Positions 9,617-26,573 are shown, counted from the stretch's first letter. The stretch is DNA of 64,000 nucleotides from Bacteroidia bacterium (GCA_044341025.1 JBIISM010000013.1:643-64642); one strand, 5' to 3'. The notes: generated from the letters alone by a model not told the origin. Numbers and translations: made by a program.

Positions 9617-9641
9617 ATTTTATATTTTTTTTAAAATATAA

Positions 9642-9724: not shown

Positions 9725-9763
9725 GGGAGCTTAGCTCTCCCGATAGCTATCGGGAGGTTCAGA
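9725..9763 (+). pseudogene. Duplicated 5' fragment of tRNA-Val with an 18-bp perfect palindrome in the D-arm
   Basis: GGGAGCTTAGCTC + TCCCGATAGCTATCGGGA + GGTTCAGA, compared with the tRNA sequence GGGAGCTTAGCTC-AGCT-GGTTCAGA. Confidence 0.6.
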
Positions 9764-9790
9764 TCAAAACCTTTAACAGTTCATAAAAAA

Positions 9791-9865
9791 GGGAGCTTAG
9801 CTCAGCTGGTTCAGAGCATCTGCCTTACAAGCAGAGGGTCACTGGTTCGAACCCAGTAGCTCCCA
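9791..9865 (+). tRNA. tRNA-Val(TAC)
   Basis: Acceptor stem GGGAGCT/AGCTCCC-A, anticodon arm TCTGC-CTTACAA-GCAGA, T-loop GGTTCGAAC; CCA not encoded. Confidence 0.98.
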
Positions 9866-9867
9866 CT
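9816..9867 (+). repeat. attL: 52-bp direct repeat (3' part of tRNA-Val)
   Basis: Base-for-base identical to 24635-24686. Confidence 0.95.
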
Positions 9868-9875
9868 TAGAGAAC

Positions 9876-9913
9876 AAAGGGTTTCAGTCGTTTTAAGATT
9901 GAAACCCTTTTTT
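9876..9913 (+). terminator. Intrinsic terminator after tRNA-Val, supplied by the island
   Basis: AAAGGGTTTCAGTC...GATTGAAACCCTTT hairpin followed by a T-run. Confidence 0.6.
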
Positions 9914-9936
9914 CATTTGCACATAATTTGCACAAA
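9914..9936 (+). repeat. Putative integrase arm-type site, left end
   Basis: CATTTGCACATAATTTGCACAAA is identical to 24502-24524; it contains tandem TTTGCACA units. Confidence 0.7.
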
Positions 9937-10074
9937 TTCCTTCCGAAAACGGCTTTATTTAATTAGGTTTGAGTTATTCTCTTTAATGAATCAAATTTTA
10001 AAATAAAGACTTAAATCTATTTTTTAAAAATTACAATTAAAAATCAATTAGGTTTGTAAACAAAATACTTAATC

Positions 10075-10581: not shown

Positions 10582-10629
10582 TTATTAAGCCTTATGAATA
10601 TTCGTTGACAATTTCATTTTGACCGTAAT

Positions 10630-11451: not shown

Positions 11452-11472
11452 ATTTGTTTATGAAATTTAGAA

Positions 11473-12492
11473 CTATATGATATAAAGTTGTGCTGAATCA
11501 ACTAATTGCCTCTTAATAGCAACAATACTATCAATACTTGTGACTTCGATTTTTTGCCCACCATTAATTTCTATAAAGTGCTTGTTTTTAGCACTGGTAA
11601 TTTTACATATTGTTTTCTTGTTATTGTCATCAACCAAAATGTTGAAACTGTTCTTTTGGTCTCGATAAGATATTCTTGAAGAATCGAACTTCTTCAAAGA
11701 ATTTATTAATAATGTCTTTACTGTGTGGTAAATTTTCAATTCTTCAGCTGTAGTAATAACAATACTTCCATTTTTAGATTCTTCTTCAATGACTTTAGGC
11801 AATGCATTTTGAATAGCATTAGAATTGATTAGATTTTTAATTTTGGTTTTAATTGTATCTGTCATTCTTTGCCCTTCCATCCTCGAGAAAATTGCTTTAA
11901 TAAATCCTTCTGAGGGGTCTGAAAGTTCTGAAGCCAATGCATCTGCAAATCCTTCTAAGAAATAAAAAACTTGGGCCTCTTCATAAAGCTCTTTTAAATC
12001 AATGTTATTCTTGTGTAATTTTGATAAGTTATCTAACAAATCATCATTAATTTCTTTAAAATCTAAAACTAAAAAAGGAACTTCATACAATTTCATCTCT
12101 TTCTTAGCTTCGTTAGGAAAATAAATTCTCCATTCTAAACCATTTGTTAAAATTCCAAATTTTGAATTTTGGGTATTAATAAAATAATTATTTAACTGAG
12201 AGGCTTCTTTATCGGTTAACTTCTTCCCATGTGTTTTGCATTCTACTATAACCTCAGGTATTTTACCTTTTACAATCAAACCTATGTCAGCTTTATCATT
12301 TTTCTTACCCCATCCAGCATTAATTTCAGTTGCCTGATCATCGATACGACTATATCCTAGTATTTCTAAAATTGGTTCAATCACAACATGACGAGTTTGT
12401 GCTTCATTAGTGCATCGTTCATCTAATCTAGATAAGTCAAACTTCGACATAGACTTCTTTATTGCATTTACGATTTGTTTGTTAACTGGCAT
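11473..12492 (-). CDS. HsdR N-terminal-domain (PD-(D/E)xK) endonuclease-like protein (COG4748-like)
   Basis: NEAQTRHVVIEPILEILGY...KADIGL...IVECK...QLNNYF...GILTNGLEWR; no helicase motifs follow. Confidence 0.8.
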   Translation of the reverse strand: MPVNKQIVNAIKKSMSKFDLSRLDERCTNEAQTRHVVIEPILEILGYSRIDDQATEINAGWGKKNDKADIGLIVKGKIPEVIVECKTHGKKLTDKEASQLNNYFINTQNSKFGILTNGLEWRIYFPNEAKKEMKLYEVPFLVLDFKEINDDLLDNLSKLHKNNIDLKELYEEAQVFYFLEGFADALASELSDPSEGFIKAIFSRMEGQRMTDTIKTKIKNLINSNAIQNALPKVIEEESKNGSIVITTAEELKIYHTVKTLLINSLKKFDSSRISYRDQKNSFNILVDDNNKKTICKITSAKNKHFIEINGGQKIEVTSIDSIVAIKRQLVDSAQLYII

Positions 12493-12627
12493 ATGATTCT
12501 ATTTTGGGGTAAAGGTATTTATTTTTATATCATTTTTTAAATTAAAATTTAGATGTTAACAGATGAAATATCCGCTAATTCATTAAATCACAACAAAGTG
12601 CTGTTTTTTGGATGATAAGAATTACTT

Positions 12628-13716
12628 TTGAAACTATTACTTACGTCTATTAGGTTTTTAAATTTATTATTAATGAATAAAATACTTCACACTTATTTTT
12701 TTGGCTATCTTTCATATCGGTACAGGAGACTTATAAGGTCATTATCAATTATTTTACTTGTTTTCACAATTATTATTGTCTTAATTAATATTTATCAACT
12801 TCATAACGATAAACAAATTAATTTTATTTACGAGAGATATGTCTCAACAGAATATGCTTCTCAAGACTTTTATACAACTTCTATTGGGAATGAGCGCACA
12901 AAATCATATTTAGTCAATAAATATGGTGATGAAGGATTTCAAAACCAAATAGATAATGGAATACTAACAAAGATGCAAAGTTGCATAAGACCAGACAAGG
13001 AATTTACTAAAAATGAATTTATAAATTCCTTGCCAACAAACAATGCACTTGGTTGCATTGCCTTTGCGATTGGGAAACAAGAAAATATGGAAGGAATTAA
13101 CAATTACAGAAATGCAGATGATTTTATATTAAAAGGTTTAAAAATTCGTTATTTTAATACGCCCTTTCCATTGGTACTATCAATCTTTATATATTGCATT
13201 TTAATTTGTGTGATTAGTTATTTGATAGAACCTTTTATACTTGAGAAAAGAAATAAAGTAGATGATTTAGGTTCAATCAAAAACAGTGAAAGTGCTTACA
13301 ATGAACCCAAAAATTTCTTTAAAAATATTATAATTAAAAATGATAACGTAAAGTTTGCTCAAGCTAGGTTTGACGAAAAAGGACCTAAAAAGAAATCAAG
13401 ATTTGATAATTATTTTACCTTCAATAATGAATACTTGAGCGGGACAAATTTCTGGATTAGGATGTTTGTAGGATGGTTAACGCTTGTAATATTCGGATTA
13501 GGGTTCTATATAATGCTAACAACAACCTACAAAAGGGCACAATCATTAGGCCTTAGTAAAGTCTTAGCAATAACATCTTGCATATATATTCCCATTATGA
13601 ATATTTTAACATTTTTGCTAATAAGAACTGATGATTCTGAAGTGAATTTATTAAAAGCAGTTATACTTGGTATTCCTTTTGCGTATTTTTATTTTAAAAA
13701 TGGCAAAAAAAAGTAA
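12628..13716 (+). CDS. Membrane protein with DUF805-like C-terminal TM domain (paralog 1; start may be 12673)
   Basis: TM - soluble loop - TM - linker, then YFTFNNEYLSGTNFWIR...YKRAQSLG with further TM helices. Confidence 0.65.
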   Translation: MKLLLTSIRFLNLLLMNKILHTYFFGYLSYRYRRLIRSLSIILLVFTIIIVLINIYQLHNDKQINFIYERYVSTEYASQDFYTTSIGNERTKSYLVNKYGDEGFQNQIDNGILTKMQSCIRPDKEFTKNEFINSLPTNNALGCIAFAIGKQENMEGINNYRNADDFILKGLKIRYFNTPFPLVLSIFIYCILICVISYLIEPFILEKRNKVDDLGSIKNSESAYNEPKNFFKNIIIKNDNVKFAQARFDEKGPKKKSRFDNYFTFNNEYLSGTNFWIRMFVGWLTLVIFGLGFYIMLTTTYKRAQSLGLSKVLAITSCIYIPIMNILTFLLIRTDDSEVNLLKAVILGIPFAYFYFKNGKKK

Positions 13717-13778
13717 GTCTTTTTTAAATATAAAACAGCTGATAAATTAATTAAATTCAATAGTAAATTAACTTAACT

Positions 13779-14894
13779 TTGATTATGAAATGGTTTAAAA
13801 TAGGAGAGTATTTTAATGGGATTAAATTCTTGAAAATAAACAACATTAGAAAGAAAATCGCATTTGAAATAATTATATTAATATTCACATCTCTAGTTTG
13901 CTCACTTATTTATTTGATTGGAGACTACTCAGAACATAAAAAAATAGCAAATCATGAAAGTAAGGTAGAAACAATAAAAATAGAAATTGATTCCTTAAAA
14001 AGTTATTATTATTTCAGGCGTGTATACTCTTGGTTAGATCAAAATGGCCATATAAGTGATTATACATATAATTCATTTAAGAAAAATATTCTCAAGGACA
14101 ATGATTCCTCATTTAGAAAAGATATTTATTATATAATATGCAGATCGGATCCAAGTTATAAAAATGAGTTTACATTTGAAGACTTTATCAATACATTGGA
14201 GGTCGATTCAATTGAACAAATAGATGAAGTCGATGAGCAGATTATAGCATTAGAAAAACAAAGTGAATTTCTTAATCAACATCCAACTGAATATAATGAC
14301 AGCTATGAATACCTAATTGGTATAATATTTTTCATTTGCTACCCTTTGCGATTTATTTATTATTTATTGAAATGGGCTTTCAAAACTCTAAAAGAGGAAG
14401 AAACAGCATCTAATACAAACCCAATAAAAAACAATACCCTTCTAATTGATGAATGCAAATCAATAGATGAAAAACCAAACAATTTAAGCAGCTATAAAAA
14501 AGAAATATCGCCATCAAAAAGTCGCCAGCACAAAATGGAGAAAAAAGGATATAAAATTAGACTAAAAAAATATTTTACTAATAGCGACGAATATATTAAC
14601 GGAAATCAGTTCTGGATGAGATCGTTCCTGGGCGCTATCACAATCCCTCTGTTTGGATTGGGCTTGTATTTAATATTTTTAGCAGCTTATAAAAGATGCA
14701 AGTCAGTTGGATTTGACAAAACCGTATCAAAAATATGCTCACATCTTTTAGTGCTAGTAAGCATAATTTCACCTTTTCTTCCATTGGTTTTACCTAAGAT
14801 ATATAATTACTCCTTTGAGGAAGTGTTATTCGTTGAGTTTTTACTTAGTTTACCTTTTGTCTATTTACACTTAACAAATGGTGCGAGAAAGTAA
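13779..14894 (+). CDS. Membrane protein with DUF805-like C-terminal TM domain (paralog 2)
   Basis: Same topology as paralog 1; YFTNSDEYINGNQFWMR...YKRCKSVG. Confidence 0.65.
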   Translation: MIMKWFKIGEYFNGIKFLKINNIRKKIAFEIIILIFTSLVCSLIYLIGDYSEHKKIANHESKVETIKIEIDSLKSYYYFRRVYSWLDQNGHISDYTYNSFKKNILKDNDSSFRKDIYYIICRSDPSYKNEFTFEDFINTLEVDSIEQIDEVDEQIIALEKQSEFLNQHPTEYNDSYEYLIGIIFFICYPLRFIYYLLKWAFKTLKEEETASNTNPIKNNTLLIDECKSIDEKPNNLSSYKKEISPSKSRQHKMEKKGYKIRLKKYFTNSDEYINGNQFWMRSFLGAITIPLFGLGLYLIFLAAYKRCKSVGFDKTVSKICSHLLVLVSIISPFLPLVLPKIYNYSFEEVLFVEFLLSLPFVYLHLTNGARK

Positions 14895-14979
14895 TTAAAT
14901 TGGATATCACCTAAAAGTTTTATGTTTGGAGAAATATTTTCAACTTGAATGCGATAGCTAAGACAATAAAAAATAGATA

Positions 14980-16311
14980 ATGCCAGGAAGATTAACCACA
15001 AGGGGCTTTTTAGAAAGAGCAAAATTAGTTCATGGAGATAAGTACGATTATAGTAAAATAACTTATTTGTTTGAATCGGATAAGATTACTATTTTCTGCA
15101 TAAAACATCAAATAGATTTTCAGCAATCCGTTCAAAAACATTTAGCTGGGCAAGGTTGTAGAAAATGCTTTTCTGAAGCAAACGGAGATAGATGTCGAAC
15201 CAGTGTGGTTGAATTTGTTAAGAAAGCAAAAGCTATTCATGGAGACAAATACAACTATGATGGAATAGATTATAAAAACAACAACACAAACATAAAGATT
15301 AATTGCCCATTACATGGCGATTTTTTCCAAACACCCGGTAATCATACGCACAAGACTAATCCGCAAGGTTGTTCTGAATGCAGCGGCAGAACAAATTGGA
15401 CTCAGGAAAAGTTTATTAGTAAGGCAAGAGAAGTTCATGAAGGTCAATACAATTATGACAAGGTTAAATTTATTAATACTACCCAAAAAGTTAATATTCA
15501 TTGCCCTAAACATGGTATTTTTCCACAAACACCCAGCAAGCATCTAAGTGGACAGAAATGCCCAAAATGTGCTAGTAATTTTAGAGGGACGACTGAAAGT
15601 TTTATTGCAAAAGCAATAGAAATTCATGGAGAAAAATATTCATATGATAATACAAAATATATCAGTAATCATGAAAATGTATTTATAACCTGCCCAATTC
15701 ATGGAGATTTCGAGCAATCACCAGCAAATCATACACATAAGTCAAATCCCCAAGGCTGCCGAAAGTGTGCTGGACGCTATCCATTAAACACTTCTGAATT
15801 TATATTAAGAGCCAATGAGAAACACGATTATTATTATGACTACAGTAAAGTTGTATATGAAAGTATGACCTCAAAAGTTATAATACTTTGTCCTTTTCAT
15901 GGCGAATTTAATCAACAATCAAGCGTTCATTTGCAAGGTAGTGGTTGTCAAAAATGCAGGTTGCCAAAGGGAGAACAGAAGATCCAAAAAGCCCTAAAAG
16001 AATTTGATGTACAATTTGAACAACAATATTCTTTTCCAGATTGTAGAAATAAAAATCCTTTGCCTTTTGACTTCTTAGTCAGAATTGGAGAAAACCGGTT
16101 TTTAATTGAATTTAATGGAGAACAACACTATCGGCCTGTTAAATTTGGTGGGGGAGATGATAAAGGTGCTGATGAAACATTTGAAGAAGTAAAAAGGAGA
16201 GATGCAATTAAGTTGGAATATGCTAAGAAAAATAGAATCCCCTTATTGATAATAAAACAAGATGAAGCTAACAAGATTTCAGAGATTATTAAAGGTTTTT
16301 TAAACTTATAA
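14980..16311 (+). CDS. Five Cys/His (Zn-binding, DUF723-like) repeats plus a C-terminal PD-(D/E)xK/Vsr-like nuclease
   Basis: Five repeats of about 60 aa: F..KA...HG.KY.Y...I.CP.HG.F.Q.P..H...GC..C; C-terminal PFDF...IEFNGEQHY...RDAIK. Confidence 0.8.
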   Translation: MPGRLTTRGFLERAKLVHGDKYDYSKITYLFESDKITIFCIKHQIDFQQSVQKHLAGQGCRKCFSEANGDRCRTSVVEFVKKAKAIHGDKYNYDGIDYKNNNTNIKINCPLHGDFFQTPGNHTHKTNPQGCSECSGRTNWTQEKFISKAREVHEGQYNYDKVKFINTTQKVNIHCPKHGIFPQTPSKHLSGQKCPKCASNFRGTTESFIAKAIEIHGEKYSYDNTKYISNHENVFITCPIHGDFEQSPANHTHKSNPQGCRKCAGRYPLNTSEFILRANEKHDYYYDYSKVVYESMTSKVIILCPFHGEFNQQSSVHLQGSGCQKCRLPKGEQKIQKALKEFDVQFEQQYSFPDCRNKNPLPFDFLVRIGENRFLIEFNGEQHYRPVKFGGGDDKGADETFEEVKRRDAIKLEYAKKNRIPLLIIKQDEANKISEIIKGFLNL

Positions 16312-16394
16312 TGGAGTAAAATAAATCAAAGCATAAAGCAGAACCTTTTTGATATAATTGGGTTCGTGCAAGTTACTTACCGTTATTTGTTAAA

Positions 16395-16634
16395 TTAAAT
16401 ATCTATAAAAAGTGGCTTTTCAGTATTGCCCCCCCATTTCAGCAAATGGGAATTAAGAACAGTTGCCATCTCTAAGGTGTTATCATAATCATTTAAAAAT
16501 ATACCTATGAAGGGGTTGCAGGATTGAACAACTATTAAATATTGGGCTGGGGTTAATATATTGCTTTCCCCCAATTTAATAAGTTCTTTAATGCTGTTTA
16601 CTTTTAGTTTAGTTTCTTTGTTTTCCATTATCAT
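16395..16634 (-). CDS. Small hypothetical protein, paralog of 20794-21045
   Basis: First 50 aa identical to those of the 20794-21045 product. Confidence 0.6.
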   Translation of the reverse strand: MIMENKETKLKVNSIKELIKLGESNILTPAQYLIVVQSCNPFIGIFLNDYDNTLEMATVLNSHLLKWGGNTEKPLFIDI

Positions 16635-16890
16635 AAAGGGTTTATATCGTCTGAATATTTAACAATTACTTCAATCGGCTTAAATTGTTCTTTATCTTCA
16701 ATTGTGTTCCTGTCTGTCATTCCTAATTTGTTTTTAGCATAGAATATACCTTTGCCCTCATTTGCGACAATATCAATCGAAAGTGCATCAAATATACCCT
16801 CAATGTTTTTTATAGTGTGCATCACGGTTTCGTCTTCACTTCTTAACCAGTTGTAATAAGTAGACCTGCACAATGTCGGCTTTTCTTTTA
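16631..16890 (-). pseudogene. 3' half of a small-terminase gene (sister copy of 21042-21524)
   Basis: Near-identical DNA to about 21042-21301; homology ends abruptly at 16890. Confidence 0.75.
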
Positions 16891-17580
16891 CAATGGGTGA
16901 ACGGCTGGGGGTGGCTCGGTGGCTTCAGGTACAGGCAGGGCAAACTCTTTGTAATCGAATTTTATTAAATAGTCGGCAAGGTCAAACCCTTGTTTCTTTT
17001 CGGCTTCGGTTGCTTTTCGTTCCAATAAATCGGAAACGGTAAAATTCGCAAGGTGTGAAAGTTCCTTTGCCTTGCTGCTCCATTTATCAAACCCGTTGAG
17101 GTCGGGAAATAGTATAACCGTTCGCCCTTTTAATACGCCACACTTTTCAGCGTTCAGGTTGGTAAGGCTGCCAACTGCAACCCAAATAAATTGGGGTAAA
17201 TAAACGCTGGCAATTATAGCCGTTTTTTCGCTTTCAACTATTGCAACGGGTTTTGTTTTATCATTTAACAAGTGTTCCCCAAACAAACATTGCCTTAACT
17301 CAAATTCAGGCTGTTTAAGGGCTTTATGCACCCAGTACACAGGTATTTCAAGGTTCTTAACTCTTTTGCCTGTGGTGGGGCTGTAAAGTATAATTTTACC
17401 CGTTCTTACTTTGCCCTGTTTATCTATTTGCCAAAATACCGTTGCCCCGTTCAAATGTTTTGAGGTGGCAATAAAATAACGGCTTAGCAGTTGGCTGGCA
17501 ACCTCAACCCCGAACAGGTTAATAAGGAACTGTATAAAATAGTTTGTTTCGTGTGCTTTTAGGCTGGCTTTAAATACCTC
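16888..17580 (-). pseudogene. C-terminal part of a DUF6371/PG0870-like toprim primase-type protein
   Basis: ATVFWQID...RTGKI, QCLFGEHLL, VAIVESEKTA, LFPD and DLADYL motifs. The first ~26 aa of the predicted ORF are antisense to another fragment. Confidence 0.7.
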
Positions 17581-17859
17581 AAACAAATTAAACAACGGAA
17601 TACCGAACAAATTTACGATGCTGAAAATGTTTGTGTTTGTCAAATTGATAAGCCTCATAATTTCTTACTATTTGAGTTTGTTAATTATGGCAAGGAATGG
17701 GAACACCTGAAACAGCATACCGAAAAGGATAAAGATAATCTGAACGAAAAGGTAAGCGAACTAAAGCAAAAAGGGCGAAGCCTTCGGGAAATAGGGGCTG
17801 AACTGGGTATTTCTCACACTAAAGCAGGTAGAATTTTAAAGGACTGTAACGCACTGTAA
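17575..17859 (+). pseudogene. 3' end of an AAA-ATPase/HTH gene of a Bacteroidota integrative element
   Basis: Frame YLKQIKQRNTEQIYD...GKEWEHLKQ...KGRSLREIGAELGISHTKAGRILK-stop, with a terminal HTH and no start. Confidence 0.6.
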
Positions 17860-17899
17860 CAACTGTAACACCCTGTTACAAGTGTTACACCTGTTACAC
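17843..17899. repeat. Three CTGTAAC repeats followed by three inverted TGTTACA repeats (iteron-like)
   Basis: ACTGTAAC at about 17843, 17853 and 17862; TGTTACA at about 17874, 17884 and 17892. Confidence 0.7.
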
Positions 17900-17914
17900 T
17901 AAAAAGGTAAATAA

Positions 17915-18178
17915 ATGAATGAACATAAATACATATTAGAACCATACAAAGGAATGAATACCCGTTACCGTTGCCCCAGTTGTCAGCAAAGGGATAAAAC
18001 CTTTTCGCTTTATATTGATAGGGAAACAGGCGAGCACATAAACTCCACCGTTGGCAGGTGCAACCGTGAGAGTAATTGCGGGCACCATTACACCCCGAAA
18101 CAATATTTTAAGGATAACGATATTTCATTTGATACACCCAAAGTATACAAGCCCCGAACTGCTCCAATCATACAAAAA
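17915..18178 (+). pseudogene. N-terminal Zn-binding part of a DUF6371/PG0870-like protein (ORF reads on to 18268 through unrelated DNA)
   Basis: YILEPYKG...CPSCQQ...FSLYID...VGRCNRESNCGHHYTPKQYF. Confidence 0.65.
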
Positions 18179-18203
18179 GTCGGGTGTTCTTTTTTGTTAT
18201 ACT

Positions 18204-18245
18204 GCAATACTCGCAAATTCGTTGTACCTCAATTTTTGAACTCAT
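18204..18245 (-). pseudogene. First 14 codons of a Zn-ribbon/HTH excisionase-type gene
   Basis: Reads MSSKIEVQRICEYC, which resembles the N-termini of Bacteroidota integrative-element HTH proteins (recalled, not searched). Confidence 0.4.
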
Positions 18246-18300
18246 TTTATATCTTTAAATATCTTTAAAGTGCAAAATAAAAAGGGATTAACCCTGTTTT

Positions 18301-18540
18301 TTGTACCTCGACTGCCTTAAGGTACAACGAAGGTACAAATATTCCATAAATAAACAACTATTACAGCAAAATAACCATATATTTGAAAGCATTAAAAAAG
18401 CCCTGAATTATAGGGCTTTATATAGGTTTTATATTGGTTTTGTGGGTGTTTCTTTTGGGGTAATTACTTTCCAATTCAGAAAGTAATAAATACTGATTTT
18501 TAGTTAGTTATAATTACGAGGTACAAATAGGGTACAAAAA
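18301..18540. other. Orphan att-like site: core inverted repeat with arm-type repeats on both sides
   Basis: ATTACTTTC-7 nt-GAAAGTAAT at 18463-18487; (G/A)GGTACAA repeats at 18301 (inverted), 18320, 18331, 18519 and 18530. Confidence 0.5.
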
Positions 18541-18654
18541 AACCCCTTTCTGAAATCATATCTCTGTTGTGAATTGGTTTTATTTTCTATCTTTGACATA
18601 GTTGAGCATTAATTTATTTGGAAAACAATATAAAACAGTAAATTCTTTTTATAT

Positions 18655-20103
18655 TTGTCACCAATAAAGATTAATATGAATTTAAAACATCTACTAACAA
18701 TTACAATTGCTGCATTGTTTTTAATGATTGCCGGCTCCTCTTCCGTAGTAAAGCTTCAAATGTTGCCTTCTCAGAAATTAGACGCAATAGTTAAAACAGT
18801 TCCAATAATAAAAACTACAACAAAGGATTTAGTCTTTTGTGTCTTACAAAATGAATTTTCAACTGAAGGTACTCAATCAGAAATTGAGAATATCCTTAGT
18901 AACAATGGTATAAGTGTAGTAGATATTAAAAATGCTCAACAAATTTATCAGGAACAAATTTTAAATAAAAATAGCCAAAAGACAACAATCGATTATTACA
19001 TATATATTGAAGAGGATAAAATAATTAACACTAATAACGAAGGGGATAATAAAAACTATTATTACCAGCTAATTGATGCAAAAAATTTTAAAGTAGTATT
19101 TGCTTCAAAGATAAACACTATTTCTTTTGAAAATTTCATGGAACCGTTCAATGGTGGTTCTAAAAAGATTGATTTGTCTTTTATTCAGTTTTACAAAACA
19201 AAAGCTTATTTAAAATATAATGAACTAATTGATTTAAAAAAAGATGATGAAATTTTAAAACAATCAGAAGTATTAATATCGGAAGGTAAATCGAAGTCAT
19301 TTCCTGAAAATACAAAATCGAAAGTTAAAGAAAGTTATTATTTAGATCAATATGCAATTTGTCTAAACCTTGCAACGCAATATTTACTAAACAAAGAATT
19401 TAGTAAATGTAATGAAGCTTCTAAGTTAGCCGTTACAATAGGTGAAAAAGTTACAAGATTATACAACAAAGAGACAGCTTATCTTGAAAAATTGAAAAAA
19501 AGTTCTTATATATATGAGACTGCTATTCAAGATTCTATTTATAGTTCAATTCAAAATTTAAGCGGAACTAAAAAATCTATCAATATTAGTAATGATTACA
19601 AAAATCCAGGTTACCAAATTGATAATAATGGTAGGATAAAAAAACTTTTATATTCAAATGCTGTTGTAACTTTATTTAAAACAAATCATAACATTTTAGA
19701 TATTTATGAACGGGAAATGGTTGATGATATACTAAATACAAACACAGAAGTTACACAAAAAGCAAAAGGTAATACTTCAGGTGCTGATTATTTATTATCT
19801 ATAACTCAAAATTCTTGGTCTATTCCAAGGGCAACTATAGAATATAAAAGTGAAAAAACTACAAATCGTGCAGGTGAACCAACTGTTGTTAGTTATAAAG
19901 TATTTAATTATGATATTAATTGTAAAATAACGGTTAAAATCACAAACAATAATAATGCAATCATTATTGGTTCAACTTCATTAGATTACTCCCAAAAGGG
20001 TTCATATAGAGAAGAGCAATTTTTTTCCAATTCGGCAATATTTAATGGGTTATTTGATGATGGTAAATTAAATAGTTTTTTCTCTAAAACCGTTAAATGG
20101 TAA
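18655..20103 (+). CDS. Exported hypothetical protein with helical middle and CsgG/HfaB-like segments
   Basis: N-terminal signal; DIYEREMVDDIL...GADYLLSIT resembles the CsgG fold. Confidence 0.5.
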   Translation: MSPIKINMNLKHLLTITIAALFLMIAGSSSVVKLQMLPSQKLDAIVKTVPIIKTTTKDLVFCVLQNEFSTEGTQSEIENILSNNGISVVDIKNAQQIYQEQILNKNSQKTTIDYYIYIEEDKIINTNNEGDNKNYYYQLIDAKNFKVVFASKINTISFENFMEPFNGGSKKIDLSFIQFYKTKAYLKYNELIDLKKDDEILKQSEVLISEGKSKSFPENTKSKVKESYYLDQYAICLNLATQYLLNKEFSKCNEASKLAVTIGEKVTRLYNKETAYLEKLKKSSYIYETAIQDSIYSSIQNLSGTKKSINISNDYKNPGYQIDNNGRIKKLLYSNAVVTLFKTNHNILDIYEREMVDDILNTNTEVTQKAKGNTSGADYLLSITQNSWSIPRATIEYKSEKTTNRAGEPTVVSYKVFNYDINCKITVKITNNNNAIIIGSTSLDYSQKGSYREEQFFSNSAIFNGLFDDGKLNSFFSKTVKW

Positions 20104-20465
20104 AAATAAATTTAACTATTTTTTTAAAAGTTATATTTGTTTTTTCTTTGTTAGGAGTTCCTTTAATTTTAGGGGTAATAATTTATCAAAATATTTATTG
20201 CATTAATTCTGGTATTGCTGATTATTTGCCAGACGCATTGTGGTCATGTTCATTATCGTTAGTCATATTAAAATTATGGAGCTGGAGATTAGACTTATAT
20301 AATATCAGTATAATTATATTTACACCAATTTTATTTGAGTTTTTACAGTACATAAATGTGTTTGAAGGCACAGCAGATATATTAGATATTGTTGTTTATT
20401 TGATTTCAATTTTTATTACAATTTTATTTGTGTCAGTTTTTAAGAAATTGAGAAAAGAAAAATGA
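20097..20465 (+). CDS. Small membrane protein (VanZ/DUF2809-like)
   Basis: Four TM helices with YLPDALWS, FEFLQ and GTADILDI motifs; overlaps the upstream stop. Confidence 0.6.
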   Translation: MVKINLTIFLKVIFVFSLLGVPLILGVIIYQNIYCINSGIADYLPDALWSCSLSLVILKLWSWRLDLYNISIIIFTPILFEFLQYINVFEGTADILDIVVYLISIFITILFVSVFKKLRKEK

Positions 20466-20521
20466 TTACATACGATAATTTTCTAGAAGACATATCGAAA
20501 TTTTATTTCACTTACTTCGTT

Positions 20522-20628
20522 GGTAAGGAATGGGAACACTTGAAACAGCATACCGAAAAGGACAAAGAAAACCAAAACGAAAAGGTAAGCGAATTAAGGC
20601 AGCAAGGGAAAAGTTATAGGGAAATAGC
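20522..20628 (+). pseudogene. Second remnant of the AAA/HTH 3' end
   Basis: GKEWEHLKQHTEKDKENQNEKVSELRQQGKSYREIA, homologous to 17689-17796. Confidence 0.6.
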
Positions 20629-20793
20629 GTTTGAAGATAGGATGCTTTGTGCAGCACCGATTTAGAATTAATAAATACTTCGCTTACATTATCTTTTGAA
20701 GATTCAATCCAATATCCATTTATTTCGTTTTGCATTGTAATAGTATAATGCACAAAGAACGAAAAGAATTTTATTAGTTGTTAGCTTTTTAAG

Positions 20794-21045
20794 TTATAAA
20801 TCAATTTCAGAATCTATGAAGATTGGTTTATCAAGGCTCGTTCCCCATTTTGACAGGTGCAATTTAAGTACATTTGCCATATAGAAGGTGTTAGCATAGT
20901 CGTTCAAAAAAATTCCTATGAAGGGGTTGCACGATTGAACAACTATTAAATATTGGGCTGGGGTTAATATATTGCTTTCCCCCAATTTAATAAGTTCTTT
21001 AATGCTATTTACTTTTAGTTTAGTTTCTTTGTTTTCCATTATCAT
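20794..21045 (-). CDS. Small hypothetical protein coupled to terS
   Basis: Overlaps the terS stop by 4 nt; a paralog lies at 16395-16634. Confidence 0.65.
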   Translation of the reverse strand: MIMENKETKLKVNSIKELIKLGESNILTPAQYLIVVQSCNPFIGIFLNDYANTFYMANVLKLHLSKWGTSLDKPIFIDSEIDL

Positions 21046-21524
21046 AAAGGGTTTATATCGTTTGAATATTTAACTATTACTTCAATCGGCTTAAATTGTT
21101 CTTTCTCTTCAATAGTTGCTTTGTCTGTCATTCCTAATTTGTTTTTAGCATAGAATATACCTTTGCCCTCATTTGCGACAATATCAATCGAAAGTGCATC
21201 AAATATACCCTCAATGTTTTTTATAGTGTGCATTACCGTTTCGTTTTCACTTCTTAACCAGTTGTAATAAGTTGACCTGCACAATGTCGGCTTTTCTTTT
21301 AAAGGCAGCCATATTTTAAGAAAGTATGCAATTGTTGGCAAATGCCTGTCAGATATTAGAACAACCTTACCGCTTGCTGTTGGGTGTTCTTTTTTATGGT
21401 TTAAACATTCTTTTATGTATTCCCATGCAAAAAGTTCTAATTGTTCTGGTGTTATTTCGTGTCTTAAAGTCATTTTTGTTTTAATTGATTTTACCTTTGA
21501 ATTATTAAAAGCACCATGCATCAA
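21042..21524 (-). CDS. Putative terminase small subunit (P22 gp3-like DNA-packaging protein)
   Basis: TPEQL..AWEYI, LPTIAYF, RSTYYNW and IFYAKNKLGMTDK align by eye with gp3-type TerS motifs. Confidence 0.65.
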   Translation of the reverse strand: MMHGAFNNSKVKSIKTKMTLRHEITPEQLELFAWEYIKECLNHKKEHPTASGKVVLISDRHLPTIAYFLKIWLPLKEKPTLCRSTYYNWLRSENETVMHTIKNIEGIFDALSIDIVANEGKGIFYAKNKLGMTDKATIEEKEQFKPIEVIVKYSNDINPL

Positions 21525-21540
21525 AAACTTTTGATGTACT

Positions 21541-21583
21541 ATCTTTAAATATCTTTATTAAATACCTTTATTATATATCTTTA
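21541..21583. repeat. Four A(T/C)CTTTA heptamers between rep and terS
   Basis: Copies at 21541, 21551, 21564 and 21577. Confidence 0.55.
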
Positions 21584-21597
21584 TAATGATACATTGT

Positions 21598-22548
21598 TTA
21601 AGATGTTGTTCTTTTGTTGTTCAATTGTTCTTTTATGGTTGCCTCAATTGTTGTAGTTATAATTTGTTGCTTCCACTTTTTATAGTTCTCAATGCTATTT
21701 TTAGCTTTAATATTTTCAGCATGTTCAACTAATTTTTGTAGTGGATATTTTTTGTTAATAGAAACCCAAATGCCTCGAGTACGATTAGAATAAATATTTA
21801 CATTCCAATTCAATTGCAGAATGTCTAAGAGTTTTTCCCAGTGGTGTCGCTTTTCATATTTGCTTTTTAATTCATCGTTTTTAATATCTGAAAACATACG
21901 ATTAAGAATTAATCCCTTATTTATTTTTGCAAATGATTTAATGCCAATAATTGAATTGATTGAAACAAATGCCAACAGTTGAATAATTTCAAATTCATGT
22001 CTATTAGAATCTCTATAATCAAATAACAAGTGTGTTCCTATCATTGGCATTATCTCTTTAGGCTTTATTTGCATTTTAATGCATTTTGCAGTGTTTTTTA
22101 TTGTAGGGATGTCGCCGCTCAGATTCAGGAGCTTTAGAGCTTGTTTAATGCGGTAAAATTCAATACACAATGATTCAAACAATGAATCAACTTCAAACAA
22201 GTTTAACAACTCATTTATTTCATCTTCTGGGTTGAAATTTTCGTCACTGAATCCATTATAATCGTCGTCTTTTCCAAAATATTCAAATTCTTGTTTTTTT
22301 AATTTTTTAATAATATCTGAATCCAAATTTCCTCTGTAATTATTATAACATATTTGCCTTGCAACATTGTTTAAATCATATTCAATAGCCATTGCATAAC
22401 GGTAAATCCCATAATTTAAAATATTATTTATTGATTCAACTTTGTTTTCTAAGATATCATGCAATAAAAACAGTGGGAATTGAACATATTTTCTAGGCAA
22501 AGATTTTTCAATAGTTAAATTATTAGCCACAATTACAACTCCCCCCAT
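21598..22548 (-). CDS. Hypothetical protein, possibly a replication initiator
   Basis: Position after int-xis; Thr/Asn/Gln-rich C-terminus encoded by short DNA repeats. No diagnostic motif recognised. Confidence 0.5.
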   Translation of the reverse strand: MGGVVIVANNLTIEKSLPRKYVQFPLFLLHDILENKVESINNILNYGIYRYAMAIEYDLNNVARQICYNNYRGNLDSDIIKKLKKQEFEYFGKDDDYNGFSDENFNPEDEINELLNLFEVDSLFESLCIEFYRIKQALKLLNLSGDIPTIKNTAKCIKMQIKPKEIMPMIGTHLLFDYRDSNRHEFEIIQLLAFVSINSIIGIKSFAKINKGLILNRMFSDIKNDELKSKYEKRHHWEKLLDILQLNWNVNIYSNRTRGIWVSINKKYPLQKLVEHAENIKAKNSIENYKKWKQQIITTTIEATIKEQLNNKRTTS

Positions 22549-22684
22549 ATAAGCAAATTAAAATAGCAAGTGTTTCAGGCTCTATAGAGAGCTTTGATGA
22601 TAGTTTCTTTAGTGTTGCGATTGAGATGTTAGACAAGTGTTTCACAGTGTCTAATAATGCAAATAAATCCGTTTTGTTTCCCAT
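22523..22684 (-). CDS. Possible 53-aa protein between xis and rep
   Basis: Open frame MGNKTDLFALLD...CNCG-stop fills the intergenic gap; it is below the ORF-track cutoff. Confidence 0.3.
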   Translation of the reverse strand: MGNKTDLFALLDTVKHLSNISIATLKKLSSKLSIEPETLAILICLYGGSCNCG

Positions 22685-22701
22685 ACTATAATATCTTTGT
22701 A

Positions 22702-23058
22702 TTAGTATAATTTGGAAGTACTTTCTACTTTTTTCAATCCATCGAGTGTTGCCTTTGCAATTTCTGAATTTGTTTCTCTTCTCCCAGACTTTAAATAGTC
22801 CATCAATTCAGATTCGACAAAATAAAGTCGGTTGTTTTGTTTTAAACATGGTAATTCCCTTTTACTGACTTTAGAATAAATAGTTGGGACACTTAGATTT
22901 AAGAAACTTCCTGCTTGTTTAATCGTCAATAAATTATCTTTATTGTTAGTCAGGTTTTTTTCACTTGATAATAGGTTTTCTATAGTTTCAAGTTTTTGGA
23001 ATAGAATGCTTACCATCTCGGGAAGCATATCAAAGGAAATTTTATTGTTTGGTGTCAT
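22702..23058 (-). CDS. HTH_17-type excisionase / DNA-binding protein
   Basis: LLTIKQAGSFLNLSVPTIYSKVSKRELP...LYF..SEL..YL.SGR. Confidence 0.88.
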   Translation of the reverse strand: MTPNNKISFDMLPEMVSILFQKLETIENLLSSEKNLTNNKDNLLTIKQAGSFLNLSVPTIYSKVSKRELPCLKQNNRLYFVESELMDYLKSGRRETNSEIAKATLDGLKKVESTSKLY

Positions 23059-23207
23059 TACTAAGATTATATTGTTTTAGTATGCGAATACAATGTTCTC
23101 TTAATAATTGTTGATAATTGACTTGTTTTTATTCCGTATAGTTTTGTTTAAGTGTGTTTTTTATGGGGTTTAAGCAATTTTTATTGATATTAAAATTGTG
23201 AATAATT

Positions 23208-24470
23208 TTAAAAGCTAATTAATTTTTTAGCATTATCTTTTTTAAGTTCATCTGGGAATTTCGCAATATAGTTTTCAGTGGTTTTAAGGTTGCTATGGTT
23301 CAAAGCTTCTTTAACATATTCAGAACCAAAGCCCATTCTAATCGCTCTGGTTGCAAATGAATGTCGAGCCCAATATGATGAAATCTTCTCTTCAACGCCA
23401 AGACTTAAAGCATATTTTTTAAAATGTTGATTTACAAAACGGGTAAAGTTTTGTGTTTTGGTTCTTTGTATCTCATTTGATTGGCTAATATCTAAAATTG
23501 GAAATATGTAGTTTTTGTCGCTTCTGTCTCTATTCCCATATTGTTCAATGACTTGTTTTGCAAAGTCAGTTAAATAAACTTTTACGGGCTTCAACTTGTC
23601 TTTTTTTGTCCTAATTGTTTTAGCTCTGTAAAATGTAAACATGTCACTCTGCATGTCTTTATATTTCAAGTTTAAAATGTCTTTCATGTTTATTCCATTG
23701 CATATGTATGAGAAAAACCAAAATGCCTTAGCTTTTTCTTGTTCTGTAGTTAATGGGTTGCCTTCAAAAAGTATTTTAAGCTGATTATCTGTCAAAGCCC
23801 TGTTTGAATTTTCAGCCGATGGCGGCGTGTAAAGATTTCTATCTTCACTCCCAAAGGGATAAATTGATTTATCGATTGTATTATCATTAATAGCTTTGTT
23901 GAAAATAGTTCTTAATGCCCTAACATACATTGAAACTGTTGTCCTACTTCTCTTTAAATCATTCAACATGAATCTTTCATAATCCTCTAAGAAGTCTTTG
24001 TTTATATCATGGAATGATATTTTCAGGATTTCTTTGTTACTTGTTGACCTAATGAAATTAATAATTGACTTTAAACTCAAACTGTAATTTGAAGCAGTTG
24101 AAATTTGACCGTTTTTTTGTAGCTTTTTGATTGCAAGTTCATAATGCTCAATAACATTTTCCTTATCAAACTTAATCCCAAACATGGTTTTTTCAAAAAC
24201 TTCAATATTAAAGGGTTTAATTTCCTTTGCTATTGTTATTGCTTCGTGTTCAATCGTCTTAAGTTTAAATTGCAATTCTTTAAATTCATTTTTGGGCTTT
24301 TGTGTTTCCCAAACTCTTGAAAATTCATCTTCAGTCATGTTAAAGCCAATATTGAAATATTTTCGCTCAGTGGTCTGTAATAAATACACTTTAAGTTTTA
24401 CTGGATATTTACCTTCCTTCAAAGCTCTTCTTGTATCTAAGTAGATTGAAATTGCAAATTCTTCTTTCAT
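23208..24470 (-). CDS. int: Tyrosine integrase (arm-binding, SAM-like and catalytic domains)
   Basis: IYLDTRR...YPVKL N-terminus; NGINMKD, RAKT, ARHSFAT and HSNLKTTENY motifs; adjacent to attR. Confidence 0.95.
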   Translation of the reverse strand: MKEEFAISIYLDTRRALKEGKYPVKLKVYLLQTTERKYFNIGFNMTEDEFSRVWETQKPKNEFKELQFKLKTIEHEAITIAKEIKPFNIEVFEKTMFGIKFDKENVIEHYELAIKKLQKNGQISTASNYSLSLKSIINFIRSTSNKEILKISFHDINKDFLEDYERFMLNDLKRSRTTVSMYVRALRTIFNKAINDNTIDKSIYPFGSEDRNLYTPPSAENSNRALTDNQLKILFEGNPLTTEQEKAKAFWFFSYICNGINMKDILNLKYKDMQSDMFTFYRAKTIRTKKDKLKPVKVYLTDFAKQVIEQYGNRDRSDKNYIFPILDISQSNEIQRTKTQNFTRFVNQHFKKYALSLGVEEKISSYWARHSFATRAIRMGFGSEYVKEALNHSNLKTTENYIAKFPDELKKDNAKKLISF

Positions 24471-24491
24471 TTTTAATCTTTTAAGTTATTA

Positions 24492-24524
24492 CAAAGATAA
24501 GCATTTGCACATAATTTGCACAAA
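24492..24524 (-). promoter_or_regulatory. Integrase promoter overlapping arm-type sites
   Basis: Minus-strand TATCTTTG at 24492-24499 and TTTG at 24521-24524 with 21-nt spacing. Confidence 0.5.
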
Positions 24525-24544
24525 AAATAACAAATTTGCACAAA
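24502..24544 (+). repeat. Putative integrase arm-type sites, right end
   Basis: 23-bp copy of 9914-9936 plus a third TTTGCACAAA at 24535. Confidence 0.7.
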
Positions 24545-24634
24545 AATAAACATAATAAAACATAGTAGGCATATTTTAAAACTCTATATTTGTAAAGGGT
24601 TTGCGCACTAATGCAAAGTTAAGATATATCGTTT

Positions 24635-24686
24635 GCATCTGCCTTACAAGCAGAGGGTCACTGGTTCGAACCCAGTAGCTCCCACT
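24635..24686 (+). repeat. attR: 52-bp duplicate of the tRNA-Val 3' part
   Basis: Identical to 9816-9867; lacks the tRNA 5' part. Confidence 0.95.
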
Positions 24687-24689
24687 GAT

Positions 24690-24736
24690 AAGAGAGTGAA
24701 TGTGAAAGCGAATGCGGAAACTTCACTCTCTTTTTT
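24690..24736 (+). terminator. Probable original tRNA-Val terminator
   Basis: AAGAGAGTGAA...TTCACTCTCTT stem followed by a T-run, directly after attR. Confidence 0.6.
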
Positions 24737-24894
24737 CATTCACACTCATTCTCACATTCGCTCTAAAAACTCTCTAATTTCAATTTGTACATTTTTGAAT
24801 TATTGCTTAATTTTACTATTATGTGTTATTTTTATATACTTTATTCAAACATGCTTGACAAATACTACATAGGTCATACTTGTGATGTGTTAAA

Positions 24895-24927
24895 TACCAC
24901 CTTCGCCAAGCGCCAAACCGTTACTTG
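24895..24927 (+). other. attC-like 3' remnant (core-site side)
   Basis: ACCACCTTCGCCAAGCGCCAAACCGTTACTTG, ending in a GTT core. Confidence 0.45.
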
Positions 24928-24966
24928 TCCGAAACCATTATAAGTGAAATAAATTTGTAAGAATCA

Positions 24967-24999
24967 TTTTAATGTAGTTACTTTGTAATTACATTAAAA
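24967..24999. promoter_or_regulatory. TA operator palindrome
   Basis: TTTTAATGTAGTTA-CTTTG-TAATTACATTAAAA: a 14-bp inverted repeat with one mismatch, 8 nt before mazE. Confidence 0.65.
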
Positions 25000-25007
25000 T
25001 TTAGACA

Positions 25008-25253
25008 ATGGATATTCCTTTAATCTCAATTGGAAACTCAAAAGGTATTAGACTTTCCAAAACAATACTTGAAAAATATAATATTCAAGATACTGTCGAA
25101 TTAATATTTGAAAAAGGTTTTATTATTTTAAAACCGAAGACTTCAGCTAGAAATGGTTGGGAGAAGTCTTTTAAGAAAATGCACGAAAATGGAGATGACA
25201 ACCAATTAATGGCAGACGTATTTAATGACGAAAGTTTTGAAGAATGGAAATAA
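25008..25253 (+). CDS. mazE: AbrB/MazE-family antitoxin
   Basis: LISIGNSKGIRLSK N-terminus; overlaps the toxin start. Confidence 0.92.
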   Translation: MDIPLISIGNSKGIRLSKTILEKYNIQDTVELIFEKGFIILKPKTSARNGWEKSFKKMHENGDDNQLMADVFNDESFEEWK

Positions 25254-25567
25254 AACAGTATGAAATTGTTTTGGTTAATCTTGACCCTACAATCGGCAGT
25301 GAAATGAAAAAGACTCGCCCATGCGTTGTAATTTCTCCCAACGAAATGAATAAATATTTGCAGACAATTGTTATTGCCCCTATGACAAGCAATTCTAAAA
25401 GTTATCCGACAAGAGTTGCAGTTAAACATAATAAAACAAAAGGCTGGGTTGTTCTTGATCAAATAAGAACTATTGACAGACAACGTATTGTGAAAATTCT
25501 TGATAAACTTTCCGAAAAAGATATTGATGAAGTCAAGACAATTATTCACGAGACATATGTAGCATAA
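25244..25567 (+). CDS. mazF: PemK/MazF-family mRNA interferase toxin
   Basis: VNLDPTIGSEMKKTRPCVVIS...VIAPMTS...LDQIRTID. Confidence 0.95.
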   Translation: MEIKQYEIVLVNLDPTIGSEMKKTRPCVVISPNEMNKYLQTIVIAPMTSNSKSYPTRVAVKHNKTKGWVVLDQIRTIDRQRIVKILDKLSEKDIDEVKTIIHETYVA

Positions 25568-25577
25568 AAACAAACGT

Positions 25578-25605
25578 CAGGTAACTACACGTACCAAAAA
25601 TGCGG
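25578..25605 (+). other. attC-like 5' remnant (inverse core site)
   Basis: CAGGTAAC 10 nt after the mazF stop; it is the reverse complement of GTTACTTG (24920) at 7 of 8 positions. Confidence 0.45.
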
Positions 25606-25925
25606 TTATTCGGCTTCGGCATTTGCAAAAGCGGTCGCTCCCGAGTCGCTAGATATTTAAGATATTTCATCTTTAAACTTATGCACAAAGCGAAAATCAC
25701 TTCAGAATCAAAGTTGAAACGTCACCATTCTAAATAGCTCATAATGTTGCAGCTGGTCTTCAGGGTTTTCTAAATAAATTTAATGGTTATTTGGGTCCTC
25801 TAACAGATGAAATCAATCAATACAGCGCTAGGATAGATCTTTAATTTTCAAAAAACTGCTTTAATCTCTAGGATATTTTAATTCAAGTATTTTGAGATAT
25901 TTCCCCCTAAATTTGAACTGCCTTT

Positions 25926-26573
25926 ATGAACCCTAAAGTTGCTGCCTTTTTAAACGATGCCAATGCTTGGAAAGCCGAGTTGGAATGTCTTAGAAACATT
26001 GCAAACGACTGCGCCTTGGCCGAAGATTTTAAATGGGGTGTTCCTTGTTATACCTTCAATAACAGCAATGTGGTTTTAATCCATGGGTTTAAAAAGTATT
26101 GCGCCATCTTGTTTGTGAAAGGTGCGCTTTTAAGTGATTCGAAAAACATTTTGGTACAACAAACAGAGAATACCCAAGCCAGCCGTCAAATTCGCCTTAC
26201 AAGTGTTCAAGAAATTGAAAGTCTTGAATCAGATATCAAAGCCTATATTTATGAAGCCATAGAGATTGAAAAAGCCGGCTTGAAAGTTGAATTTAAACAA
26301 AGCAAAGAGCTTGATTTTGTACAAGAGCTGCAAAATAAATTGGAAGCCGATGCCACCTTTAACACTGCTTTTATGTCACTAACACCAGGGCGTCAAAGGG
26401 CATACAATATATTTTTCTCAGACAGCAAACAATCGGCTACCCGCATTTCTAGAATTGAAAAGTCGACCACTAGAATCCTAAAAGGGAAGGGGCTTAACGA
26501 TTGCGTATGTGGCTTGTCTAAGAAAATGCCGTCTTGCGATGGCTCACACAAAATTCTCAAACCAATAGATTGA
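25926..26573 (+). CDS. DUF1801/YdeI-OmdA family protein with a C-terminal CDGSH motif
   Basis: KWGVPCY, LTPGRQRAY and terminal CVCGLSKKMPSCDGSH. Confidence 0.85.
   Translation: MNPKVAAFLNDANAWKAELECLRNIANDCALAEDFKWGVPCYTFNNSNVVLIHGFKKYCAILFVKGALLSDSKNILVQQTENTQASRQIRLTSVQEIESLESDIKAYIYEAIEIEKAGLKVEFKQSKELDFVQELQNKLEADATFNTAFMSLTPGRQRAYNIFFSDSKQSATRISRIEKSTTRILKGKGLNDCVCGLSKKMPSCDGSHKILKPID

Follow-up and report, generated by a model that had tools for sequence, protein, structure and literature searches.

A stretch of 64,000 nucleotides of Bacteroidia bacterium DNA (GCA_044341025.1 JBIISM010000013.1:643-64642), referred to at its full length as the window, harbors on its minus strand a gene, terS, whose product is identified here with high confidence as the small subunit of a phage DNA-packaging terminase (TerS). 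The gene belongs to a 14.8-kb island in a tRNA-Val gene and is not accompanied by a gene for a large terminase subunit (TerL). The island is probably a TerS-bearing satellite that depends on a helper phage for packaging. The identification of TerS is carried by its predicted fold and by the gene order of its phage relatives, the satellite reading by the absence of TerL, the anatomy of the island, its recurrence in related loci (numbered L001-L198), purifying selection on terS, a nucleotide-invariant motif inside the gene and a correspondence between TerS tails and TerL types.

Identification of the small terminase subunit

A P22 gp3-type TerS had been proposed in an earlier, sequence-only reading, and both structure and synteny bear this out. 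The AlphaFold (AF2) model of the monomer, with a predicted local distance difference test score (pLDDT) of 81, comprises a helix (residues 9-25), a β-hairpin (27-41), helices 48-58, 66-73, 78-102 and 106-112, and a disordered tail. In a Foldseek search of the Protein Data Bank (PDB) the P22 gp3 nonamer (3p9a) ranks first, with E 1.8e-3, a probability of 1.00 and a template modeling (TM) score of 0.53-0.56 across 126 columns; the second PDB match has an E-value of 0.39. Among the viral models of BFVD the top match is an uncultured-phage protein with 55% identity, and ranks 2-13 are largely occupied by 'DNA packaging protein gp3' or TerS entries.

Relatives of the protein are encoded on more than 550 IMG/VR contigs, from which 80 loci were retrieved for an analysis of gene order; repeating the viral-contig scan with the single protein gave essentially the same loci. 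In 75 of these 80 the gene at position +1 encodes TerL, a protein of about 400 residues belonging to one of two families (52 and 23 loci), so that in phage contigs terS lies directly upstream of TerL and in the same orientation. The two TerL families are of the Terminase_6N type and of the Terminase_3 plus Terminase_3C type, and PHROG TerL families match them as well. Downstream of TerL follows a conserved module whose products include a head protease and a tape-measure-like protein. TerL lies no more than two genes downstream of 82 TerS copies in the first 111 related loci; after removal of redundancy over all loci 74 phage TerS copies are retained, and the phage homologues are 51-65% identical to the window protein.

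Sequence profiles point in the same direction at lower significance. Of 34 family members, 16 match GP3_package (PF16677), the commonest Pfam family among them (best E 0.0047), 21 match PHROG 606 'terminase small subunit' (best E 9e-6), and three further TerS PHROGs match more weakly than PHROG 606. Three results count against the identification, namely the score of the window protein against GP3_package of only 14.7-15.1 bits at a gathering cut-off of 29.4, the non-significant hhalign comparison of two family alignments with the P22 gp3 sequence (E 0.39-0.41), and the lack of any relevant hit in family profile searches against PDB sequences. Because the hhalign comparison is non-significant, the link to gp3 rests on fold and not on sequence. 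In terms of the predicted model 'gp3-like' is valid at the level of the fold, not as Pfam membership. Fold and synteny are two independent lines of evidence and are much stronger than the sequence profiles.

The family comprises at least 983 database proteins at E<=1e-3, all unnamed, whose named sources are mostly Bacteroidota metagenome bins, and it is compact: at 50% identity it forms only 66 clusters in a set of 1.8 billion representatives. A tblastn search against 50,697 GenBank phage records returned zero matches, and therefore no cultured phage relative is at hand. The core peptide DIVANEGKGIFYAKNKLGM is conserved at 80% or more per column in phage and island copies alike; the part of TerS expected to oligomerize and engage TerL is also its most conserved one.

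Reading frame and selection

The sequence-only reading had placed the gene at 21042-21524. Its coordinates are exact and the motifs quoted for it (TPEQLELFAWEYI, LPTIAYF, RSTYYNW and IFYAKNKLGMTDK) are all present in the 160-residue minus-strand translation, but the strand had gone unnoticed: read on the plus strand, 21042..21524 is full of stops. The 160 residues result from a start at the TTG at 21524 (-), to which the frame is open. Since homologues are typically 138-151 residues long and their alignments begin at an internal methionine (MTLRHE...), the true start is probably the ATG at 21473 and not this TTG.

Comparison with a 90%-identical orthologue in locus L082 gives dN/dS (the ratio of nonsynonymous to synonymous substitution rates) of 0.11 at dS 0.61, and more distant island copies give 0.15-0.16. 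terS is thus much more than a chance open reading frame (ORF) and is under strong purifying selection.

Upstream of the gene, 46-63 nt from the ATG, a perfect 8+8 palindrome, CATCAAAA-GT-TTTTGATG, is found at 21519-21536 (-). It overlaps the TTG of the long ORF and is kept in the orthologous locus L082. Beside it lies a TAAAGATATTTAAAGATA repeat, of which an identical copy occurs at 18250-18267. From its sequence the palindrome is a possible operator.

Anatomy of the island

The ends of the island are perfect 52-nt direct repeats, one within tRNA-Val and the other a copy of its 3′ end. Its GC content is 27-32%, with one bin of 36% over a terS remnant described below, versus 35-40% outside. The principal features are as follows, strands being given in brackets where assigned.

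9816..9867 (+): attL, 52-nt repeat within tRNA-Val (9791-9866), left island end
9914..9936: pair of ATTTGCACA repeats close to attL on its inner side, a stretch of 23 nt that recurs identically at 24502-24524
20794..21045 (-): ORF of 83 residues, sharing 4 nt with terS at the stop of the latter
21042..21473 (-): terS, small terminase subunit, 143 residues from the ATG at 21473
21218..21229 (-): ACACTATAAAAA, nucleotide-invariant motif at terS codons 82-86, candidate pac core
21598..22548 (-): putative replication initiator of 316 residues, in the slot held by replication proteins in sibling islands
22702..23058 (-): HTH_17 excisionase/AlpA-like DNA-binding protein (PF12728, E 1.2e-9; PHROG excisionase families match)
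23208..24470 (-): tyrosine integrase with Arm-DNA-bind_5, SAM_5 and catalytic domains (Pfam/PHROG)
24503..24552: three ATTTGCACA repeats between the integrase gene and attR, putative arm-type integrase sites
24635..24686 (+): attR, 52-nt perfect copy of the tRNA-Val 3′ end

Read from attR on the minus strand, the order is arm-type repeats, integrase, HTH_17 protein, an ORF of 53 residues, the 316-residue protein, terS and the 83-residue ORF; the integrase (int), excisionase-like (xis), replication (rep), terS and small-ORF genes share one direction, each of them intact. Judged by sequence and position, the ATTTGCACA repeats probably serve the integrase as arm-type sites. A divergently transcribed repressor was not found in the window island, and the HTH_17 protein may be no more than an excisionase. 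A third, internal att copy is likewise absent within 3 mismatches, and two adjoining islands split by an internal att site were therefore rejected as an interpretation.

The statement of the sequence-only reading that no TerL gene is present holds for the whole 64-kb window. Hidden Markov models (HMMs) of both TerL clades, searched against the six-frame translation of the window, have no match at E<=10, and the same is true of five conserved virion-module families; Pfam and PHROG scans of the island ORFs also yield no TerL or virion genes, no search having been aimed at lysis genes. The designation of terS as stand-alone is accurate as far as TerL and virion genes in the window are concerned, but a second, decayed copy within the island had been overlooked: the TerS HMM detects the intact gene at E 6.6e-62 and a fragment at 16634-16924 at E 1.1e-32.

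The 316-residue protein has 44 homologues, all unnamed, and its AF2 model has a pLDDT of 88. The nearest folds, weak matches with E 0.087 at best, are those of the winged-helix initiators ORC, Cdt1 and RepE54. The 83-residue ORF is a distant member (HMM E 3.5e-7) of a family of small proteins of about 75 residues, which follows terS in many island loci and was not found beside phage terS; it has no match in Pfam, PHROG or PADLOC.

Recurrence of the island layout

The satellite context assumed in the sequence-only reading is reproduced in other genomes. Integrase, xis-like gene, replication candidate and terS between att repeats at a tRNA gene constitute a layout that recurs in about 45 other Bacteroidota loci. 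Without TerL it is present in about 20 loci from genomes, 27 from metagenomes and the two closest relatives on long contigs. Species-representative genomes contributed 31 loci, most of them from Bacteroidota bins (Chitinophagales, Crocinitomicaceae and Flavobacteriales among them); of these loci about 20 display the island layout (integrase, HTH_17, replication gene, terS, small ORF) without TerL, and about 6 are phage-type. In a metagenome scan the 27 closest TerS relatives (55-78% identity) are all island-type, phage-type loci appearing only at 64% identity or below. The two closest long-contig relatives (69-74% identity) are islands of about 4 kb built on the same plan, and the integrase of the window family accompanies terS in sibling islands as well.

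Sibling islands with mapped att sites measure 4.4-7.6 kb and are located at tRNA or tmRNA genes; the one at tRNA-Asn is 6.5 kb long, that at tRNA-Arg 7.6 kb and that at tRNA-Leu 6.2 kb, and those at other sites are about 4.5-4.7 kb. Between terS and att these islands have at most one further gene, and arm-type repeats are present at both ends. Siblings also carry end-repeat pairs of their own, e.g. TTGTATGCAAA in L100 and L105. The replication gene differs from island to island, being a zinc ribbon plus DUF6371 protein, an AAA_25 helicase with a C-terminal helix-turn-helix (HTH), a BT4734-like_N protein, a Phage_CRI rolling-circle initiator or a member of the family of the 316-residue protein. 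In some of the siblings measuring about 4 kb a Phage_CRI gene lies directly upstream of terS (L115 9068-9976, L116 1046-1975). Rolling-circle replication would yield concatemers suited to headful packaging.

Island TerS sequences form a near-exclusive clade (16 island, 8 unclassified and 1 phage sequence). The recurrent compact layout, this separate clade and purifying selection led to rejection of a degraded prophage. One TerS in phage context, in L106 (488-940) and followed by a Terminase_6N-type TerL, nests within the island clade and has an island-like N-terminus; by sequence, L106 may stand near the phage lineage that was the source of the terS captured by the islands.

Read depth over assembled contigs (window positions 8500-26000, lake metagenome runs X1 and X3) was compared between island and flanks. 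In the source lake metagenome it is 11-12.6 in the island versus 15.4-15.5 in the flanks, and in the other lake sample the flanks of a related strain are present at depth 9-10 with the island nearly absent. The insertion is thus probably polymorphic in lake populations. An island-type relative, L001, is listed in IMG/VR and originates from a bulk lake metagenome.

A nucleotide-invariant motif within terS

Among 81 non-identical terS genes (25 island, 55 phage), in which synonymous sites elsewhere are near saturation, a stretch of 11 nt, AC ACT AT(A) AAA A, is essentially invariant even at synonymous sites. Thr83 is encoded by ACT in 78 of 78 cases, compared with 37% of threonine codons gene-wide, and Lys85 by AAA in 81 of 81, compared with 58% of lysine codons. 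Codon 82 ends in C in 77 of the 81 genes although the residue varies (mostly Asn, Asp or His), C-ending codons accounting for 25-34% gene-wide. By contrast, the invariant residue T47 is encoded by ACA (43), ACT (18), ACC (16) and ACG (4). The sole run in terS of at least 5 nt with 95% or higher nucleotide conservation is ACACTAT (7 nt), which lies inside the motif. ACACTATAAAAA also occurs in the terS remnant at 16807-16818 (-).

In 1.1 Mb of loci the motif has 82 occurrences within terS and 2 outside it (2.8 expected). Having one copy per element and no excess over background outside terS, it is a cis element present in single copy, and a role as repeated late promoter was rejected on this ground. 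A -1 frameshift heptamer (A_AAA_AAC) was rejected as well, the next codon being variable. The P22 record annotates pac within gene 3, at a comparable fraction of the gene's length; the terS motif is located at about 58% of terS. The preferred reading of ACACTATAAAA is that of a candidate pac core.

C-terminal tails and the type of the large terminase

The tail of TerS, i.e. the approximately 25 C-terminal residues following LGMTDK (window 21042-21120, -), falls into sequence classes that are distributed as follows.

Terminase_6N-linked phage TerS (n=41): FDFE 35, xFG 4, other 2
Terminase_3-linked phage TerS (n=33): DISLD 18, IDPL 8, PLF 4, KPI 1, other 2
Island TerS (n=44): KPI 23 (including the window), PLF 8, PEWL 3, IDPL 1, other 9

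With classes defined after looking at the data, phage tail class and TerL type separate perfectly, without exception in 70 classified sequences, and the separation holds where the core phylogeny disagrees (L027, L072). All 32 island tails that belong to a phage class are in Terminase_3-linked classes and none in a Terminase_6N-linked one. The tail of phage L149, VEKPIIISLGSGINPDE, closely matches that of island L083, EIKPIIINLGSGINPKE. The C-terminal tail of P22 gp3 binds TerL. On this basis the distribution of tail classes suggests that the tail determines docking to TerL and that the islands exploit phages with a Terminase_3-type TerL; with a single phage example of the KPI class, it is suggestive only.

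Phages carrying this TerS family derive from lake and other aquatic metagenomes, and their hosts are presumably Bacteroidota. Three related phage contigs are 34.17-34.28 kb each, and the 47-kb contig Ga0209596_1000283 (L185/L196) repeats itself with a period of 32.7 kb at 99.2% identity, which suggests a genome of about 33-34 kb for a phage of the helper type. Islands of 4-15 kb would therefore need to be packaged as concatemers.

Proposed packaging mechanism

Upon infection by, or induction of, a helper phage, the integrase and the HTH_17 protein would excise the island, and the island's replication protein would amplify it. An oligomer of the island TerS would then bind pac on the island DNA, for which ACACTATAAAA inside terS is the best candidate, and would recruit the large terminase of the helper via its C-terminal tail, so that island concatemers could be packaged by the headful into helper capsids. 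The tail classes predict a helper with a Terminase_3-type TerL. Full-size helper capsids filled with concatemers are expected because the island has no capsid-remodeling gene. Excision on helper infection, the pac function, recruitment of TerL, packaging itself and any transduction of flanking DNA are steps we infer.

Several points weigh against this account. No helper phage was identified; the nearest phage TerS is about 54% identical overall and no more than 63% over the best local segment, and the tail class of the window, KPI, has a single phage counterpart (L149). If the 11-mer serves phages and islands alike, packaging specificity would be left unexplained. Pfam, PDB profile and Foldseek searches with the 316-residue protein are all non-significant, and no master repressor, capsid-size or helper-interference genes were recognized in the island. 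Assembled lake contigs contain no reliable attP or attB junctions, the joints with sides of 21-22 nt being probably due to chance. Finally, at 14.8 kb the window island is 2-3 times the size of its siblings and is a mosaic with a decayed second module, and it may no longer be mobile.

Alternative explanations

The island TerS could mainly be a decoy that sequesters or misdirects the TerL of an infecting phage or forms mixed rings, thereby defending the host, with transfer secondary or absent. Mixed oligomers or competition for TerL are plausible given the core peptide shared by island and phage copies, island tails resemble one TerL class, and satellites commonly double as defence islands (PMC9618062, PMC10803314). 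In L082, moreover, terS and the small ORF stand at chromosomal genes without int or rep, and yet terS is intact. This explanation is nevertheless unlikely, as terS is tied to int, xis and rep in about 45 loci and is placed near att in att-bounded elements of 4-8 kb, which fits mobility; a pure decoy would not need the single-copy motif that the islands keep, and PADLOC finds no defence family in the island.

At the L082 junction itself (7591-7617, set against 25844 and 21559 in the window), a chromosomal gene of 215 residues directly adjoins terS and the small ORF. The flanks are 86% identical to those of the window, and no att, int, xis or rep lies between. The junction could be a real remnant or a chimeric assembly join.

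Alternatively, the window copy could be the relic of a decaying satellite mosaic whose packaging function is lost although the family would retain it, its conservation being due to the recency of the decay. This applies to the window island in particular, which exceeds the 4-8 kb of its siblings by virtue of about 11 kb of unrelated cargo between terS and attL and in which a second terS is truncated, a primase gene is split and inverted, and two fragments of helicase-HTH genes are left. On the other hand, its int, xis, rep, terS and small-ORF genes retain their integrity and common direction, its att repeats are perfect, arm-type repeats are found at both ends, dN/dS relative to L082 is 0.11 and related lake strains probably differ in whether they carry the island, which makes loss of function quite unlikely. 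The cargo and the second module consist of the following segments.

10075-16311 and 18655-20465: cargo of unrecognized role
11473-12492: cargo protein of 339 residues with HSDR_N/HSDR_N_2 domain
14980-16311: cargo protein of 443 residues with DUF723/DUF4379 treble-clef zinc fingers
16395..18268: remains of a second satellite module, decayed and rearranged, with the six segments below
16395-16634 (-): c25-like ORF
16631-16873 (-): 3′ two-thirds of terS, lacking about 55 N-terminal codons
16888-17658 (-): part of a DUF6371 primase
17688-17860 (+): C-terminal fragment of a helicase-HTH protein
17915-18268 (+): primase zinc ribbon
18179-18268 (-): 5′ fragment of terS, antisense to the end of the zinc-ribbon ORF

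Further cargo genes encode a protein of 482 residues with a signal-like N-terminus (secreted), a membrane protein of 122 residues and several proteins without recognized family. A PADLOC scan of the cargo, rep and small ORFs gave nothing above noise. The arrangement of these segments, with the primase gene split onto opposite strands, implies at least one inversion and one deletion. The fragment at 17688-17860 (+) and another at 20462-20665 (+) are 83% identical and represent the C-terminal HTH of an AAA_25 helicase-like protein that is intact in the sibling islands L105, L095 and L001; by sequence, both are further debris of earlier elements.

A third explanation is that a TerS-derived protein has been repurposed for DNA binding in excision, replication or regulation, for instance in setting directionality or as an accessory that binds the origin. 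In its favor, the N-terminal domains of TerS proteins resemble helix-turn-helix domains, and terS comes immediately after the replication gene in an array that looks like an operon. However, the region expected to oligomerize and to engage TerL is the most conserved one in phage and island copies, the tails follow the TerL-linked classes of phages and the islands already possess a separate HTH_17 protein, which renders repurposing very unlikely. That the protein is not a terminase, the fold and weak family matches being coincidental for a small helical protein, is extremely improbable: all profile matches do lie under curated thresholds, the hhalign and PDB profile comparisons are non-significant and the Foldseek E-value is only 1.8e-3, but homologues occupy the canonical TerS position, directly upstream of TerL from two different clades, in 74 non-redundant phage loci, and two independent structure libraries return gp3 or TerS entries.

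Implications

Returning to helper-dependent packaging, the recurrence of the layout raises the possibility, which we advance tentatively and with some doubt, of a phylum-wide group of minimal (4-8 kb) Bacteroidota satellites whose sole hijacking equipment would be a terS cassette with an internal pac, ACACTATAAAA, and a swappable TerL-docking tail. If this were true, satellite-helper pairs would be predictable from sequence, in the present case with a helper possessing a Terminase_3-type TerL and a genome of about 33 kb. To our knowledge, nearly all phage satellites characterized so far come from Proteobacteria, Firmicutes or a small number of Actinobacteria. The pairing of a satellite TerS with a helper TerL is known already; such elements in Bacteroidota would be new. 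About 45 sibling loci, more than 70 related phage loci and a 4-8-kb element with a single recognizable hijacking gene provide a compact system, in which the 11-nt pac candidate and the putative tail-to-TerL code would allow direct tests, in abundant freshwater bacteria, of how specific packaging is and how wide the range of helpers.

Comparison with known systems

Compared with TerS proteins of the P22 gp3/Sf6 gp1 type (3p9a, PF16677), the window protein shares in its predicted fold the helical N-terminus, the β-hairpin, the long central helix and the disordered tail. The gene of its phage relatives likewise lies directly upstream of TerL, and a candidate cis-site is located inside the gene. 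In contrast to P22 gp3, the window family is separate and compact, without significant sequence similarity and below the Pfam cut-off.

The core of phage-inducible chromosomal islands (PICIs) consists of int, an AlpA/MerR-type HTH gene, a primase-replicase and terS, without virion genes (PMC10085698); Bacteroidota are unmentioned in that survey (PMC10085698), and the literature searches made here found no described terS-bearing satellite family in this phylum. The islands resemble PICIs, including the Staphylococcus aureus pathogenicity islands (SaPIs), in core order, specific att site, TerS as the packaging-redirecting gene and the absence of virion genes. They differ in size (siblings of 4-8 kb versus a PICI median of 9.5 kb), in host phylum and in TerS family, and no capsid-morphogenesis (cpm), ppi or rpp genes or divergent master repressor are recognized in them. 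In the window island the regulator and replicase slots of this core are filled by the HTH_17 protein and the 316-residue protein, both of them only putative in these roles.

The PICMIs (phage-inducible chromosomal minimalist islands) of Vibrionaceae measure about 6 kb, encode an integrase, an AlpA-like regulator and a primase, have neither capsid-remodeling genes nor terS, and are located beside fis (PMC10803314). Their core is int, alpA, iolg and prim, and they are packaged as concatemers (PMC10803314). Minimal size and the absence of a capsid-remodeling gene are common to both groups, whereas the islands described here carry terS and integrate in tRNA or tmRNA genes, in the window tRNA-Val.

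The marine virion-encapsidated integrative mobile elements (VEIMEs), satellites from the environment, encode tyrosine integrases, primase/helicases, AlpA-type regulators and excisionases (PMC9618062). Some carry a TerS closest to that of a co-occurring phage, and some are integrated in Flavobacteria (PMC9618062). Contrary to the window island, which is known from sequence alone, VEIMEs are defined by their recovery from virus particles. With respect to these systems the island is most likely a phage satellite of the PICI/PICMI-like kind.

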